Of a stretch of DNA of 64,000 bases, positions 5,568 to 53,741 are shown piece by piece. Source of the stretch: Candidatus Poriferihabitans sp. (GTDB taxonomy: Bacteria > Pseudomonadota > Gammaproteobacteria > Arenicellales > Poriferihabitantaceae). The stretch is taken from contig OZ244855.1 in assembly GCA_965220975.1 (NCBI GenBank), forward strand, positions 1,390,730-1,454,729. The letters are read 5' to 3'. The notes below the pieces were generated by a model. The model was not told the DNA's origin. It saw nothing but the letters and a program-made list of their open reading frames with translations, and ran no database searches. Both the position numbers and the translations under genes were made by a program. Each line of letters begins with the position of its first letter. Position 1 is the stretch's first letter.

Positions 5568-7490
<1,923 letters not shown>

Positions 7491-43327: not shown

Positions 43328-43666
43328 CATACCGGTTTAAGATGTGATTGCTCGGTACAATCACAAACTTGTTGTCATTTTATCCTGACAGCTACTGATT
43401 TTCAAACATTATTCATGTCTTTTTTAGGGAATTATATAGTTATTTAGTGCCTGCCAGAAAACCCCTGTTGTTCGCCGACGGCAGGAAAATTTTACTCGGA
43501 AACGGTCTCAGGATGGGACCATTTCGTCTATAAATTCATGAATTGTGCGGCGCACAATATGAATATTGTGCCAAACAGACGGGTTTTTTTCAAGCATAAA
43601 AACCTCCCAGACATAGCTCTCCAGTCCCAGCAAACCGGGAGGCCAAACGGATTTCAATTGGAGCCG

Positions 43667-44968
43667 CTAAGCGGCGAGGCGCAGGCGCTTCTTTTGCTTC
43701 CGGCGAAGCAGTAGACCCATCCGATGAATATTCAGAGTGAGTACCGACAAGGCTACGGTGCGGGCAAAACCATCCGCACCATGAGTACGAACCCGATCCA
43801 AACCCCGGTGCTCCAGATTGTCAATGGCCGATTCAACCGCCGGGTGATGGCGACGCTGAGCCACAAATACCTCTTCGCTCTCCCGTTGCCGGTCAGCCTG
43901 ACCAAGACCCCCTTTCTTCGGCAATCCATTGTAATCGAGCAACTCGTCAAGACGACGGTTGGTGACACTGTGAAAACCCCGATCAAAACTCACCCCACGC
44001 AGTTGTGGATAGGCCCGCTGGGTCGCTTCGACCATCGGCACCGCATAGTCTGCATCCGTACCTTGCCACATCACCTCATGATGCAGGATAAAACCATGCT
44101 GGTCCTCCAGAATACACACCGGAACACCGAACTCGACCGGCGTTCCAGACTTGCCCTTCGAAATCCAGCGAGTGTGAGGCTGGCAGATCGAAAACACCTT
44201 CTCTGACTGCGGGATCTTCTCGCCCTTGAGTAAACGACGGTCAACCAAATCCACATGTAGCCGAGCATAGTACAAATAATAATCGATCACTGCAACACAG
44301 GGTGGACGATCGAATTCCTCAACCAGAATGCGGAGCGTTGACTCCGCACGCTCGATGAATTCCTGACACCGGTTCAAATAGGTTTCAATCGGATCCGGTT
44401 TCGCCTGCGAGGTCTTGCGTACTCGATTGAACAGTTGCTTGACCGACCGGGTCAGGTGAGCTGACTGGTGCCAGCCTTTCAAATCATGGGCCTTGACCGC
44501 CTTCGCGGTCTCGCGAATCAGACCACGAATCGCATCCCGCAGTAGACTGACGTCGGTTGCGTAATGCACATCGGTTTCCACCACAAAGGAATCACAGCGC
44601 CCGAGCAAGGGCACGCCAGACTTTTTTCCAGCCACCTTGTGACCACTGTCTACCACCAGTGGATTGACCTCTGCCAACAGCTCCGGAGTCAGTAGCTCGA
44701 CATTATCGATGATCGTCTGAAGTGCATACTGGTCATGCTTCGAGAGACTGGAATGTCCCAAAAACAGGCGCACTGTCCGGTGTTCATTGATTAACTCAAT
44801 GTAGCCGATCATGGTCGCAACCAAGACCCTGCTTGAGCACTCCCATTACCAGAATCCGCCATGACTCCATGCCCGGACGACCGTTGTTTCGGTCCTTGCC
44901 GGGCAATATGTGCTGGTCCAGCAGGGCAAACAAGGCCTGGCGTGTATTCGGGTCCCGATACAGATGTT
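43667..44968 (-). pseudogene. ISNCY-type DDE transposase, frameshifted and 5'-truncated
   Basis: GRPGMESWRILVMG, CDSFVVETDVHY, SKGKSGTPVEFG, FDRGFHS, VESAIDNLEHRGL. An extra T near 44797 (LH-tga instead of LHEL) shifts the frame; the N-terminus is cut at ~44969 by the duplicated segment. Confidence 0.8.
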
Positions 44969-46034
44969 TAAAAGGCATGACCAAATCAGTAGCAGGTACT
45001 GGGTCAGTCTGAAAGCAGGCAGGTGGGCACGCCCCCGGCCCAACTCCAGAAGCCTCTGCAGGTCGGGTTCTGCGTCAGCGTCTGGCAGCCCTTGCCGCCA
45101 CCGGCCAGGATGCGGATCGCCGGGTTGTAGACCTTGTACTTGTCGAATTCGCGACTGTCGGCGGTTTTATTCAGCGTGAGGTACATCTCACCCCCGCCTC
45201 CGTAGCCGATGTTCTGGCCGGTGCGCTGCCGAACCTCAATCGTGTGCTGGCCTATCAATCCTGTACCCAACGACGCTCTTCCGTTGCTATAGAAGTTCGT
45301 CCATCCCGTTATTGCCCCTCTCCTGTTCCGAAACTCGAAGAATCTGTGGTCGCCCGTGGCCTGCATGTAAAGGGCGCTGAACCCGGTCCACGCATTGCCG
45401 TCATCCTGCTTGGGCGGTATCCGCAGCCGCAGGGTCGCCACCCGCCCCTGATCGCCGCAGCCGGTCAGCACGTTGCGGCCGGGATTGTCCAGCACGATGA
45501 CCGGCTTGTAGTTGTTGTGGGCGCGAACGACCTCGGCTGTGGCCAGGGTGGGCAGTAGTGTCAAGGCCACCAGCACGGTGGCAAGGACCGTCAGGCGGTC
45601 AAGGGGGGGGGGCAATGTCATTAACTTAAGCATTGTTTATCTCCAAATAGTTATCGATTGTAGTAATTATTAAAAGATTGAGATCATTATTATACGAAAA
45701 TGCTCTCGTTTTTCGTAATATTTAGATATTTGGGCATTTTTAACCGCCAAAGCCATACTCAAGGAAACAACAATTCCTAAAGTTAGTGACATTAGGGGGG
45801 CTCACGTGTCGCATGGTAAGGTCACCCGTGTGAATGTCCTGCAGTCTAGAAGCTTGAGCGACTCGAAGGCAAATTCTATTTTCAAACTCAGACACTGCCA
45901 TTTATTTCGTGTCGTGTTCATGTCATAACTGCTATTAAAGAATGCTCAGATAAATGGCATACAGGTATAGCATGCCAACCTGAACATTCAGTTGATTTAG
46001 AGGTGTTTTATTATAGTTCAGCACACCAGTCAAG
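44969..46034. repeat. Segmental duplication, copy 1 (partner 49821-50984)
   Basis: ~45500-46034 is identical to ~50449-50984 except for one G in the G tract; left ends share TAAAAGGCATGACCAAATCAGTAGCAGGTACTGG; the middle is diverged. Confidence 0.95.
45004..45633 (-). CDS. Secreted 4-Cys protein of unknown function, paralogue A (C10 tract, in frame)
   Basis: GGAG RBS 7 nt before ATG; signal peptide ending ATA/EVV; motifs TGCG.QGRVATLRLRIPP and GGKGCQTL.QNPTCRGFW.W.GG.PTC. Confidence 0.8.
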   Translation of the reverse strand: MLKLMTLPPPLDRLTVLATVLVALTLLPTLATAEVVRAHNNYKPVIVLDNPGRNVLTGCGDQGRVATLRLRIPPKQDDGNAWTGFSALYMQATGDHRFFEFRNRRGAITGWTNFYSNGRASLGTGLIGQHTIEVRQRTGQNIGYGGGGEMYLTLNKTADSREFDKYKVYNPAIRILAGGGKGCQTLTQNPTCRGFWSWAGGVPTCLLSD

Positions 46035-46040
46035 CTTAAA

Positions 46041-46279
46041 GAGTTATGGCTGAAAGTAGTGCGCGGGGCTGCCTGAGCCGCGACACCATGCTCGCCATGA
46101 TGTTCAAGCTCGGCCAGTGCGCGGAATCCCGCTGGCGAAGGCTGCGCGGGTTCCGCAGGCTGGGACAGGTCATCGAGGGAGTGCCATTCAAGGACGGAAT
46201 CTAGGTACAATCAGACACGAACACGGTAGCCGCTGGATGAACCCCTTTCCGCCCCGCGCACTACTTTCAACCATAACTC
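46041..46279 (+). mobile_element. 239-bp internally deleted IS256-family element (MITE)
   Basis: 28-bp TIRs (GAGTTATGGCTGAAAGTAGTGCGCGGGG, 1 mismatch); flanks AAGCTTAAA / TAGCTTAAA; 46061-46204 translates to ARGCLSRDTMLAMMFKLGQCAESRWRRLRGF..VIEGVPFKDG*, an IS256-like C-terminus. Confidence 0.85.
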
Positions 46280-46550
46280 TAGCTTAAACCTCAAGCATTT
46301 GAGTTGTACGCATTTTCATCACCAGTACTGAAAAACCGTGACAGTCCCGTTTTTCAGGAGTCTTATCGGCATTGAGATAAAACTCCCGAATAGAAACTTC
46401 ATTCATTGTCATTGAGCGGGTTAGTCTGGACCTGCTTTAAAATCATCGACGGGAATAATCAAATATTCCGTTTCTAATAATCTGGATATGAAACCATCCA
46501 AAGATGCTGACTCATTCTGAAAAGGAAACGAGTGGATAACTCTGAAGAGA

Positions 46551-47855: not shown

Positions 47856-48738
47856 CGATACTACTCACCGGCTTTTATGCTTTCTCGAAATCATACCTGC
47901 AGGTACAAACCACCAATCGAAGCACATCACCAAAGTCAATGCAAGTGCTGAAGCACTGAACCGTTGGTTAAAACCTCTGTCATATTGTTGTACCAGCATT
48001 GGGTGATTGACTAGTCGATTGTACAACACCTGATAATACTTACCTACACCAGAAACCTGAAAATAGTCGTTTCGATCTCATATGATCGGTTAATTTATTC
48101 CCGTTGTCACAGGTATTACCAGTTTGAATCTATGATCGTATGAATAGCAGCTGAGCGAATCGTCTATCAACTATCCCACTACAGTAAATGGAATGGCTTG
48201 TTCTGTCCAGATCAGCTGAAATTAACACCGCATATTGAATTTTATTTTTGGACGGGTTTGTTCTCAATATAGTTCGTTTCAATAAATCGATAACGTATTC
48301 ACTAGCAATCGATGAATATTGAATCATGTTATCTGTGATTTCTTACTGATTTGATCAAAAAAATGGGAATGAGTGACTTATTAAGTGAATCGTTTCGCGA
48401 TTCGATTTGATTTTTCTGGGTTTCAGTGTTTGCATGTTATTGAGCATACGGACCGGATTGACCACTGTGTTCAGAATATTCTTTTACGGTTTATTTCTCG
48501 ATATTTGAAGTAATAGATACATATGGAGGAACGAAAGAACATCAGTGCAATGGGATAGTGTCCCTATTGCACAGGTGCAGAGTCTAATGACCCTGCATTT
48601 GTAATGGTAACCTCTGATTTAGAGATTACGGATTTGGAATGAAAAATATGAATTAAAAGGGAATTGTACCGAAGGTTTGCAAATCAAGTTTGACAGTAGT
48701 AAAGTTGTGTTTGAGTTATTCTTACGTTCTGTTATCAT

Positions 48739-48807
48739 GCGTGATATGGGATTCGTACTCCCATATCCAAATCAACACTTAACAGAGATAAGGTTGAACC
48801 GCATGAG
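48739..48807 (+). mobile_element. IS200/IS605-family left end with subterminal hairpin
   Basis: GATATGGGA-ttcgtac-TCCCATATC hairpin directly upstream of the tnpB ATG; homologous copy at 56286-56354. Confidence 0.7.
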
Positions 48808-49541
48808 CGATAATATCACATATCGAAACATCACTTACCGCTTGATTTCGGGTTCGGAGTCGAAAGCTCGCAAGCTTGCAGGTCAGACTGGGGCTTGCCG
48901 TTTTATCTGGAATTACTTCTTGGGCGAAAACCGAGATCAAATGAATCAGCATCGAGTATTTCCTGATCATCACCCTAAGCCGCCAACTTCTTTTTTTCGT
49001 TGGGTGTTCAATTTACAAAATTGCGTCTGGAGATCGATAGGCGGAATGACTATTTCTGTTTGATTACTCGATCTGTTTTGAAAGATCAAGCGGACGCGTG
49101 GAAGGCTGGTTTTCAGTCGGGTAAAGGATTTCCAAAGTTCAAGTCCAAACATGGATCTAATCCTTCGTTTGCGATTCCTGAAAAGATCAAGATACAGGAT
49201 GGCAAACTGCACATCCAAAAGATCGGTTGGTTGCGAATCCAAAGAAAAGGTGGCAATCCATATCCTGAGAGTAAGCCGGTCAAGACAACCGTAACCCTGC
49301 AAGCGGGCAAATGGTATGCCGTTGTTTGTTATCCGGTTGAGATACCTGAAAAGATGGATGACGGAGTAACCGCAGGGGTTGATCGAAATGTTAGACAAGT
49401 TGCAGTGGTGGATAGCAACGGCAATGAGCATATACACTACTTGCCCGATCTGGCGAAAAAAGAAGCCAGATTAAAACGATACCAGCGCAGGATGCAAAGG
49501 CAGGTTAAAGGTTCAAACCGCAGATACAAGACGAAACGAAA

Positions 49542-49702
49542 GGGGCTTATATACATTACTTGACACAGGCCAATCTTTCCCACAATCGGGGGCGATATGG
49601 TCAATCAACTGTCTATCGGATCCCACCTTCTGAGACTTTCGTGCTGGTTGAAGCTGTTTAGCCACACGATTTCATCCTTGTCAAGTAATGTATATAAGCT
49701 CC
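49542..49702. mobile_element. 161-bp MITE, IS1595-family-like ends
   Basis: TIR GG(G/A)GCTTATATACATTACTTGACA with a 21-bp perfect core; exact 8-bp TSD AAACGAAA (49534-41 and 49703-10); excision restores the tnpB frame (KTKRK|VQKAHRNI). Confidence 0.9.
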
Positions 49703-49820
49703 AAACGAAAAGTGCAAAAGGCGCATCGAAATATATCCAACATTCGTAGCAACTGGCAACATCAAACCAGCCGTAAGATTGCCGATCAAGCCAGTTTGGT
49801 AGTGCTAGAAGACTTGAACA

Positions 49821-50984
49821 TAAAAGGCATGACCAAATCAGTAGCAGGTACTGGATCAGTTTGAAATTTTCTTTTTGCGGCAAGGTTTCGGGACGGTCGG
49901 CTTGCGGCCCGCTACGACACTGGCGTCACTCCAGCAGGCAGGTGGGGCTTCCCCCACTCCAGTCCCAGAAGCCTCTGCAGGTCGGGTTCTGTTCCAGTGT
50001 CTGGCAGCCCTTGCCGCCAAGAGCGATGAGGCGCATTGCAGGACTGTAGATCTCGTGCTTGTCCTTGTCGCGGTAGTTCAAACTGTCCTTCTCTAGCGTG
50101 AGGTACATTTCGTATCCGTCACCAAAGGTGATGTTCTGACCGCTCTTTGCCCGAATCTCAATCGTGTGCTGATGACCTTTGCGGATGATTGTTTTAGGCA
50201 ACGCTACTCGTCCATTTTCGGGATTGAAGGAATTCCAATCGCTTAAATAGGAGTCGTTTGCTGTTGCTGTTGGTATGCGAACCTCGAATTTTTCGTAGTT
50301 GTTATTGGCTTGTATGAGAAGAATATGGGTCCCACTCCACGCATTCCCGTCACTCTGCGACGGAGGAATCCGCAGCCGCAAGGTCGCCACCCGTCCATGC
50401 TCGCCACACCCCGTCAGCACATTGGGACCGGTATTGACCAGCACGATGACCGGCTTGTAGTTGTTGTGGGCGCGAACGACCTCGGCTGTGGCCAGGGTGG
50501 GCAGTAGTGTCAAGGCCACCAGCACGGTGGCAAGGACCGTCAGGCGGTCAAGGGGGGGGGGGCAATGTCATTAACTTAAGCATTGTTTATCTCCAAATAG
50601 TTATCGATTGTAGTAATTATTAAAAGATTGAGATCATTATTATACGAAAATGCTCTCGTTTTTCGTAATATTTAGATATTTGGGCATTTTTAACCGCCAA
50701 AGCCATACTCAAGGAAACAACAATTCCTAAAGTTAGTGACATTAGGGGGGCTCACGTGTCGCATGGTAAGGTCACCCGTGTGAATGTCCTGCAGTCTAGA
50801 AGCTTGAGCGACTCGAAGGCAAATTCTATTTTCAAACTCAGACACTGCCATTTATTTCGTGTCGTGTTCATGTCATAACTGCTATTAAAGAATGCTCAGA
50901 TAAATGGCATACAGGTATAGCATGCCAACCTGAACATTCAGTTGATTTAGAGGTGTTTTATTATAGTTCAGCACACCAGTCAAG
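49821..50984. repeat. Segmental duplication, copy 2 (partner 44969-46034)
   Basis: See copy 1; the offset changes from 4949 to 4950 across the G tract. Confidence 0.95.
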
Positions 50985-51124
50985 TATTATGACGGAATAA
51001 ATCTGACTGGAATATGACCGGAAATTATTTACTCACCCCCTCAGTAACTAATTTCTGGACGGTTGGTCGGCGTCTCAGACGGTCGCCCTTCGTTGAACCT
51101 TCCCGCCCGTAGTGGTATCCAGTA
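49849..51124. mobile_element. 1276-bp non-autonomous cargo cassette inserted in tnpB
   Basis: Ends are TACTGGAT/ATCCAGTA with GCAGG on both sides (equivalently a 10-bp direct repeat CAGTAGCAGG); removal restores the tnpB frame (KSVAG|TVDNPGKN). Confidence 0.8.
49926..50583 (-). pseudogene. Secreted 4-Cys protein paralogue B, frameshifted in C11 tract (possibly phase-OFF)
   Basis: ATG 50583 gives MLKLMTLPPPP*; removing one C restores a ~218-aa homologue of 45004-45633 with no other lesion. Confidence 0.75.
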
Positions 51125-51621
51125 GCAGGAACGGTTGACAATCCGGGCAAGAATGGAATAGCGAAGTCTGGTTTGAATCGTGAAATAAACGAAACAGGTT
51201 GGTATGGACTGGAACAGAAACTGAATTACAAGGCAGAGGTAGTCAAGATCAACTCGGCCTACACTTCGCAAGCGTGCAGTGCTTGCGGTCATGTCAGCAA
51301 GGAGAATCGAACATCGCAAGCGGTGTTCAGGTGCATGGCCTGTGGCCATGCCGAAAACGCGGAGCTGAACGCGGCCCGCAACATGCTGGCCTCCGGGATT
51401 GGGGCATCTGCACGGGGAGGGGCGTTATCGTTGGATACCCCTTTGATCCGTGAAAAGATATACGCTGTTGGCAACGGTTGATATTGCAAACAACTATATA
51501 ATTCCCCTTTTTTAACCCCTGCAAATCTACCTATTTGCCCATGTCCGAATCGCAATGTTGCATTGCAAGAAAACTCAAGCAATGCCTCTTTTGGGTGAAC
51601 TCCTGTTTTGGACCGTGAACT

Positions 51622-53741
<2,120 letters not shown>

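Follow-up and report, generated by a model that had tools for sequence, protein, structure and literature searches.

A candidate IS1-type mobile insertion cassette, possibly with captured flanking DNA, in a tnpB gene of Candidatus Poriferihabitans

MIC231 of Bacillus cereus is a mobile insertion cassette (MIC) with the ends of IS231. Other MICs have been described, among them the Tn3-type MICs with TALE effectors in Xanthomonas (PMC4337579) and the qnrS2 MIC of Aeromonas plasmids (PMC5444012). Here, we describe an insert in a tnpB gene of Candidatus Poriferihabitans sp., located in a stretch of 64,000 nucleotides (the window; contig OZ244855.1 of assembly GCA_965220975.1, positions 1,390,730 to 1,454,729). 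Positions are those of the window unless the genome is named. On balance, we favor the view that this insert is a non-autonomous, IS1-family-derived MIC that entered tnpB together with captured flank. As in MICs, the inverted repeats of an insertion sequence (IS) family surround a passenger gene and no transposase, and the cognate enzyme, acting in trans, would leave the duplication of its family. Unlike the MICs named above, the ends are of IS1 type, the family has dozens of copies in a 3.4-Mb genome, and this copy has 270 bp outside its own repeats. The vector also differs from those MICs in its built-in leader, poly-C tract and signal peptide, placed before at least three unrelated cargo families. 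The features of a MIC (ends, passenger and a predicted enzyme in trans) are found here, except for a duplication around the minimal unit.

Surrogate-end or one-ended mobilization of adjacent DNA is established for some insertion sequences, namely ISEcp1, ISCR1 and Tn3/Tn21 derivatives (PMC3316993). What we propose for the tnpB insert resembles these systems, as one genuine end would be used with a poorly matching distant sequence to give a normal duplication. It differs from them in that a good proper end would have been bypassed and in that the surrogate is almost without similarity to a real end. No documentation of surrogate-end behavior in this IS1-type family was found in the open-access literature. 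The cargo gene, in turn, resembles homopolymeric-tract contingency genes such as Neisseria pilC (PMC5084427, PMC2831843), since the reading frame depends on a G/C run directly behind the start codon and the tract is G11 or G10 between paralogues and between two assemblies. Unlike pilC-type genes, the putative switch is carried by a transposable cassette. Transposon-borne cargo and contingency loci are normally studied apart, and the cassette family joins the two, outside pathogens. In open-access text, no paper was found that describes a poly-C switch built into IS1-derived cassettes, or such behavior in sponge-associated bacteria. MICs as such are known, and it is the IS1-derived vector with a built-in phase switch that appears to be new.

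The insertion in tnpB

The interrupted gene is a tnpB pseudogene on the plus strand. Its 5′ part (48677–49846) matches Pfam OrfB_IS605 and is colinear with 16 paralogues, and its 3′ part (51128–51481) matches Pfam Cas12f1-like_TNB and is 83–89% identical to 16 paralogues; the genome holds ~16–17 tnpB paralogues in total, with identities of 72–89%. The left junction (49839–49859) reads ...AAATCAGTAGCAGG before the break and TACTGGATCAG... after it, while the right junction (51114–51134) reads ...GGTATCCAGTA followed by GCAGGAACGG. Read together with the paralogue alignment, the two junctions define a target-site duplication: the 8-mer CAGTAGCA lies at 49839–49846 and again, identically, at 51120–51127, and the paralogues have one copy's worth of these bases.

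A model that had read the DNA letters without database searches (the sequence-only reading) had claimed that removing the insert restores the tnpB frame. This was borne out: when the flanks were joined by script minus 1,281 bp, they gave an uninterrupted C-terminal half of TnpB (...LEDLNIKGMTKSVAGTVDNPGKNGIAKSGLNREI...), colinear with an intact 439-aa paralogue, and 16 of the 16 site-spanning paralogues aligned gap-free to the flanks, save for one copy of the duplicated bases. The strain was also assembled independently from another sample (L004, a 340-kb contig); the insert structure is the same there, and 10.6 kb are identical except for one base. Therefore, the structure is no assembly artefact, and the insertion into tnpB is real. 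It is also an instance, found in nature, of a TnpB nuclease gene inactivated by a cassette.

A further insert, of ~217 bp (49533–49749), also interrupts this tnpB; it contains a miniature inverted-repeat transposable element (MITE) with inverted repeats of 22–24 bp (GGGGCTTATATACATTACTTGACA / TGTCAAGTAATGTATATAAGCTCC). One copy of this MITE, with 94% identity, lies at genome positions 1961026–1961184.

A cassette family with IS1-type ends and its transposase

The left end of the insert, GGTACTGGATCAGTTTGAAATTT (49847–49869, plus strand, at the gene-distal end of the cassette), matches the 97-copy consensus of a 23-bp inverted repeat, GGTAGTGGCTCAGTTTGAAAATC (nhmmer E=5e-6; position weight matrix (PWM) score +30.7). 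With up to 5 mismatches, this repeat has 97 matches in the genome and 0 in a shuffled megabase. The view that the ends match no common family was therefore wrong, as GGTACTGGATCAGTTTGAAATTT is a repeat of IS1-family type. A search with the terminal 100 bp recovered the 17–18-mer (T)ACTGGATCAGTTTGAAA at two unrelated loci, each ~90 nt upstream of an ATG with a poly-C run, and at ~20 loci the similarity starts exactly at GG-TAGTGGCTCAGTTTGAAAATC, with complete divergence before that point. One complete unit, of 909 bp (genome 2339401–2340309), closes with an inverted copy of the end, TTCAAACTGAGCCACTACC, and has the duplication AGAAAAAG on both sides. At least 18 repeat pairs carry perfect 8-bp target duplications, every 8-mer being different, and 4 more do so with one mismatch. 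Therefore, the family reflects classical staggered-cut transposition and not recombination at an att core.

The repeat pairs mostly enclose 760–1,100 bp, free of transposase, with a secreted-protein gene that carries a poly-C tract. A run of 9–17 C lies just after the start codon in 24 of the 26 units listed, ~105–290 nt from the promoter-side repeat, and after it the listed units have a signal peptide and an open reading frame (ORF) of ~180–285 aa. By BLASTP, the cargoes form at least three unrelated families, plus singletons. In a composite at genome positions 1351669–1353670, the outermost repeats share a single outer duplication, AAAAAAAA. The existence of such composites implies that the enzyme moves more than the minimal unit. 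We consider it very probable that the insert in tnpB belongs to this genome-wide, transposase-less family with IS1-type ends. Its apparently unusual ends are then explained by a two-base register error in reading an IS1-type repeat, together with a far end that is non-canonical, and no new recombinase is needed. The family itself is the more interesting object, with its dozens of units, its unrelated cargoes and its close relatives in other genomes.

A predicted enzyme for these ends was found elsewhere in the genome. A 2,711-bp repeat pair (genome 2450961–2453671, duplication AGATTATG) holds a 308-aa ORF (2450973–2451896) and a DNA methyltransferase. This ORF is the genome's only full-length IS1-family transposase; it matches Pfam DDE_Tnp_IS1 (PF03400) with 33.3 bits, above the cut-off of 24.1, while its 71 bits against the NCBIfam IS1 equivalog fall below the cut-off of 100. 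It has at least 8,000 relatives with PF03400, and several of these bear the NCBI name IS1 family transposase. Another genome, obtained from a sample of this kind, has the family repeat directly at the 3′ end of a homologous transposase gene (L005), and a further locus (L006) has a homologue of the present cargo with a family repeat 110 nt upstream.

We take the ISfinder criteria of the IS1 family to be ends that start with GGT, repeats of ~20–25 bp and a duplication of 8–9 bp, the last being also that of IS1 itself. The present family, like IS1, combines a DDE_Tnp_IS1 match with repeats of ~23 bp starting GGT and a duplication of 8 bp. Unlike IS1, which has insA/insB with a frameshift, it has a single 308-aa transposase ORF, and its autonomous copy carries a DNA methyltransferase. 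The ends and the predicted enzyme of the cassette family are of IS1 type, and a cognate transposase is predicted to be available in trans.

These data bear on two further claims of the sequence-only reading. The insert has no transposase ORF, its only substantial ORF being the secreted-protein gene, and a cognate IS1-family gene is present elsewhere in the genome, which supports the notion of a non-autonomous, gene-carrying element moved in trans. The statement that no transposase could be assigned did not hold, given a left-end family with 8-bp duplications in which one pair encloses an IS1-family transposase. Mobility of the cassettes, activity of the transposase, usage of the ends and phase switching are nonetheless predictions from the DNA.

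Several features of the family stand apart from the tnpB insert. A 4.06-kb repeat pair with the perfect duplication GAAAGGTT (genome 3037967–3042028) contains a PIN-domain-like ORF (by eye), a small secreted protein and fragments of another transposase; therefore, family repeats also bracket larger, mixed cargo. The repeats often lie head-to-head 7–11 bp apart or in tandem 25 bp apart (genome 1352637–1352689, 2816343–2816399, 2885698–2885754 and 1589760–1589813). Cassettes seem to prefer inserting at or next to each other's ends, and many other targets resemble GRAATTYC. The passenger methyltransferase of the 2,711-bp element consists of 393 aa plus a 91-aa N-terminal piece and is probably frameshifted.

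The far end and the route into tnpB

Within 49700–51300, an nhmmer profile of 97 ends found exactly two family repeats, 49847–49869 (+) and 50827–50849 (−). The latter, GGCAGTGTCTGAGTTTGAAAATA (E=5e-6; PWM +27.6), is on the promoter side of the gene and has the same position as the repeat of L002, one of two orthologous cassettes in other species (L002 and L003). In these, the same ATTTGCCTTCGAG leader, an ATG and a poly-C tract come after the repeat, and two repeats with a duplication matching at 7 of 8 bases are present in L002. As the inner repeat occupies the cognate position of L002 and L003, the canonical cassette is 49847–50849 (1,003 bp). The element boundaries proposed in the sequence-only reading had to be revised accordingly: the left repeat has its true mate inside the proposed element, and the right 270 bp lie outside the family unit. 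The canonical cassette is flanked by CAGTAGCA and ATTTATTT, with no duplication. The extended segment 49847–51119 (1,273 bp) is bracketed by the perfect 8-bp duplication CAGTAGCA; the first base of the insert is then the first base of the repeat, and the duplication has the 8 bp of the family.

The extra DNA (50850–51119, 270 bp) contains no family repeat or leader and is single-copy, save for its first 136 bp, which recur in a sister copy of the insert described below. It has a GC-rich 80-bp tail, the rest resembling ordinary intergenic DNA. A blastn-short search of the genome with the terminal 150 bp returned only chance 14-mers, and exact 21–24-mers of the 270 bp had no match in the public genome and metagenome contigs scanned. 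Recurrence of both ends with other flanks, which the sequence-only reading had proposed as a check, was therefore seen for the left end (~97 times) and never for the right. The nhmmer repeat profile gave nothing at 51119 or 51124, even at E≤1000. The duplication predicts a right terminus (reverse complement GATACCACTACGG...) with TATC as its last bases, and this variant recurs on units with perfect duplications. Position 51119 is the best PWM register within ±15 nt and falls in the top 2.1% of genome positions.

From these observations, we propose, with about an even chance of being right, a single transposition in trans by the IS1-type enzyme, in which a good end was paired with a very poor surrogate end and donor flank was thereby co-mobilized. 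The starting point would be the canonical unit (49847–50849), in which two 23-bp repeats surround a leader, a start codon with its poly-C tract, a signal peptide and the gene of a ~190-aa secreted protein. This cassette would be moved in trans by the IS1-family DDE transposase of the 2.7-kb element. On the way into tnpB, the transposase would have taken the repeat at 49847, skipped the one at 50849 and used a surrogate end 270 bp beyond it. In this manner 1,273 bp (49847–51119) would have entered, the donor-site flank would have been carried along, and the 8-bp duplication CAGTAGCA would have been made.

Six points speak against this proposal. The repeat bypassed at 50849 is a perfectly good one. 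The terminus at 51119 scores −20.7 in the PWM, compared with about +28 to +31 in real ends, and the support from its top-2% rank is weak and post hoc. Neither the genome nor the public collections scanned yielded a donor site for the 270 bp, and scanning the whole genome for a family repeat paired with an 8-bp repeat at a distance revealed no further clear case above chance expectation. In AT content, the target CAGTAGCA lies below most targets of the family. Finally, the sister copy provides no independent insertion event, as it shares both flanks with the copy in tnpB.

Two steps could instead have produced the structure, an alternative we regard as unlikely though worth serious weight. The canonical 1,003-bp cassette would first have inserted normally, with CAGTAGCA on both sides, and the 270 bp would have been added later, precisely between the promoter-side repeat and the right copy of the duplication, for instance through break repair templated on another cassette locus, with synthesis running through the repeat into the flank of that site. 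The 8-bp duplication would be explained without any surrogate end, as would a right junction with no similarity to the repeat. Recombination or conversion tracts that cross the repeat boundary are also evident from the comparison with the sister copy, in which the 5′ half of the cassette and the 136 bp of extra DNA are identical through 50984 (bar a one-base tract difference), compared with 68.5% in the gene core. This route, however, requires rejoining exactly at the first base of the duplication, with no loss or gain. No template locus that has the 270 bp in another context was found in the genome, and the sister copy, the only other carrier, shares the left tnpB flank and is thus a derivative rather than an independent template.

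The 10-bp direct repeat CAGTAGCAGG, one of the end readings first offered, consists of the 8-mer CAGTAGCA plus a GG common to the start of the repeat and to downstream tnpB, a 1-in-16 coincidence. Taken at face value, it would allow a one-off illegitimate recombination, in which circular or linear DNA carrying CAGTAGCAGG joined the identical tnpB 10-mer without a transposase. The direct repeat is indeed there, the right end is unique, and an isolated event of this kind is what the sequence-only reading had itself set against its proposed element. We nevertheless hold this explanation to be improbable. The donor would have to contain ...GGTATCCAGTAGCAGGTACTGG..., and the incoming DNA must by chance hold the tnpB 10-mer directly before a family repeat; the left boundary coincides with the repeat start to the base, and the length of the direct repeat is the 8 bp of the family plus the GG coincidence. 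Moreover, copies of CAGTAGCAGG occur in the genome only at chance level.

The remaining end readings, an 8-bp inverted match (TACTGGAT/ATCCAGTA) and a 5-bp repeat (GCAGG), are likewise literally present and are not the real ends, as the left end starts two bases earlier, at 49847, and 5 of the 8 bases of the right 'repeat' (CAGTA) belong to the target duplication. A separate family that has TACTGGAT as its 8-bp inverted repeats, either GCAGG as a 5-bp duplication or an att core of 10 bp, and its own, unidentified enzyme can be set aside as highly improbable, since TACTGGAT is positions 3–10 of the IS1-type repeat and occurs 204 times in the genome, its chance frequency, the right end has no second copy and in that register lies at the 22nd PWM percentile, and the family duplications, all of 8 bp and all different, exclude an att core.

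Known element types fitted no better. An integron gene cassette, which would be bounded by an attC site with R″/R′ cores (RYYYAAC...GTTRRRY) and inserted at attI/attC, was rejected, as neither boundary has GTTRRRY and the insertion duplicates its target (by reading only; no dedicated attC model was run). Elements of the Tn3 family, Tn7 or Mu, with 5-bp duplications and GGGG..., TGT... or TG...CA ends, were rejected because the ends do not match and the 5-bp register is displaced from the 8-bp register of the family. For the 270 bp themselves, three origins were considered and discarded. A decayed, inverted leader was suggested by eye by TATTATGACGGAATA and C5-TCAGTAACTAA, and a 187-position leader profile gave no match. 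The last 80 bp are not a recognizable gene fragment, as tblastn with the peptides of three reverse-strand frames found no paralogue. An IS200/IS605-type element or its MITE derivative, expected to be multi-copy, to have subterminal hairpins and to insert without duplication 3′ of a fixed tetra- or pentanucleotide, was rejected because the segment is single-copy besides its duplicate, with no significant fold and no Rfam match.

If surrogate-end transposition is the correct explanation, the tnpB copy offers a concrete, testable case of flank capture. More tentatively, the locus may show the cassette family acquiring DNA, with surrogate-end transposition as a route to flank and, in time, to regulatory DNA or additional cargo, the vectors themselves contributing the repeats, leader, poly-C switch and signal peptide. 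Several unrelated secreted-protein families on one vector would then be accounted for, and they might form a portable pool of contingency genes among genomes of the same metagenome assemblies.

Within the 270 bp, the hairpin at 50905–50927 is the only terminator-like one found, and three TGAC(N)GGAA repeats lie at 50990–51023. The 7-mer GTAGTGG, positions 2–8 of the family repeat, occurs in direct orientation at 51109–51116, 3 nt inside the right junction; its chance is ~0.4%, judged post hoc.

The cargo gene, its tract and the sister copy

The cargo gene (49926–50583, minus strand) was delimited from its ORFs, 15 aligned homologues from other genomes and an AlphaFold model. Its product has no Pfam or NCBIfam match. 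Homologues are present in at least a dozen other long contigs, and four cysteines are invariant. The AlphaFold model (pLDDT 70) is an all-beta sandwich, for which a fold search returned only generic Ig-like matches (TM ≤ 0.47). The product is thus modeled as a secreted beta-sandwich protein of ~190 aa, possibly surface-binding.

The 5′ region of the gene has been remodeled by a nested element. The ancestral leader (50745–50826, minus strand), colinear with the leaders of L002 and L003, retains the conserved ATTTGCCTTCGAG box, the ancestral ATG (50762–50764) and a C6 remnant of the tract. Next to it lies an AT-rich MITE of 182 bp (50563–50744; GC 29%) with inverted repeats CAATGTCATTAACTT / AAGTTAGTGACATTAG, flanked by G11 and G6. 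This MITE divides the tract into C6 + C11 and supplies the current ATGs. The poly-C tract proper (50552–50562, coding on the minus strand) is G11 here and G10 in the sister copy; in the G11 copy, the frame behind the MITE-borne ATG stops after 8 codons.

The same MITE of ~180 bp (CAATGTCATTAACTT...AAGTTAATGACATTG) occurs at no fewer than 9 further loci, for example at genome positions 494345–494493, 837337–837505, 1806379–1806549, 3271650–3271818 and 5885–6049. Most copies lie between G/C runs, that is, within the poly-C tracts of cassettes, and their own ATGs read into the downstream tract. The element looks homopolymer-targeting, replacing the start of the gene.

The sister copy (44969–46034, minus strand) is a truncated duplicate of the interrupted tnpB. 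It comprises 28 bp of tnpB, the cassette (44995–45899) with its gene (45004–45633), and 136 bp of the extra DNA. The tnpB stretch includes CAGTAGCAGG and TAAAAGG, which set its tnpB lineage apart from all paralogues. Given these shared lineage marks, the sister copy descends from the already-inserted structure rather than from a second, separate insertion. An ISNCY-family IS truncates its left side, and an IS256-like MITE (46036–46290) its right. Partial duplication of the interrupted tnpB 4.85 kb away, followed by erosion by other mobile elements, would thus be a later step in the history of the locus.

The two copies differ in a mosaic fashion. Identity is 95.6% over 49821–49866 and drops to 68.5%, with indels, in the gene core (49933–50442), while 50443–50984 is identical apart from the one-base tract difference. 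At the DNA level, the gene of the sister copy is 84–87% identical to its orthologues in other species, compared with 68–73% for the gene in tnpB, and the GC content of the cargo is 55–62%, against 47.6% for the genome. Together, these values point to one gene core having been replaced by an imported allele, probably through recombination within conserved parts of the cassette. We hypothesize that this exchange of the central part of one gene copy for a diverged allele also came later, as would the drift in tract length (G11 off, G10 on).

In the sister copy, the tract (45593–45602) is G10 and gives an open frame of 209 aa. In the second assembly of the strain it is G11 and out of frame, and this is the sole difference over 10.6 kb. 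The difference may be either true slippage or a homopolymer error, that assembly having 6x coverage. With a 5′ coding tract that sets the frame and varies in length, the cargo gene has the sequence hallmarks of a putative phase-variable contingency gene.

A 66-bp block holding the stop codon and 3′ untranslated region (UTR) of the gene (49867–49932, minus strand), with the motifs GCGGCAAGGTT and GACGGTCGGC, is present only in the tnpB copy and absent from its sister. This block bears on the subterminal motifs that had been singled out near both ends. The motifs exist, with some corrected coordinates: GACGGTCG(G/C)C starts at 49892, rather than 49894, and at 51078; GCGG(C/G)AAGGTT lies at 49877 (+) and 51096 (−); and TGAC(N)GGAA starts at 50990, 51004 and 51015. 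Their special status did not survive, as genome-wide counts of the 10–11-mers are at or below expectation. At this length and composition, chance should give ~50 pairs of 10-mers that differ at no more than one base, and the whole element has 83. The left-hand motifs fall in the 3′-UTR block missing from the sister copy. A role as binding sites or as a terminator was rejected on the chance counts and on the fold of the left 94 nt, which was no better than that of shuffles (z = 0.08); a search of 48500–51700 gave no Rfam match.

The elements that truncate the sister copy are themselves repeated. The ISNCY-family IS (43445–44968; NCBIfam 335.6 bits, above the cut-off) adjoins the tnpB remnant and has a 99.8%-identical partial copy at genome positions 646393–647296. 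The IS256-like MITE has more than 40 genomic copies with 93–99% identity, and the ORF inside it looks, by eye, like the C-terminal part of an IS256-type transposase.

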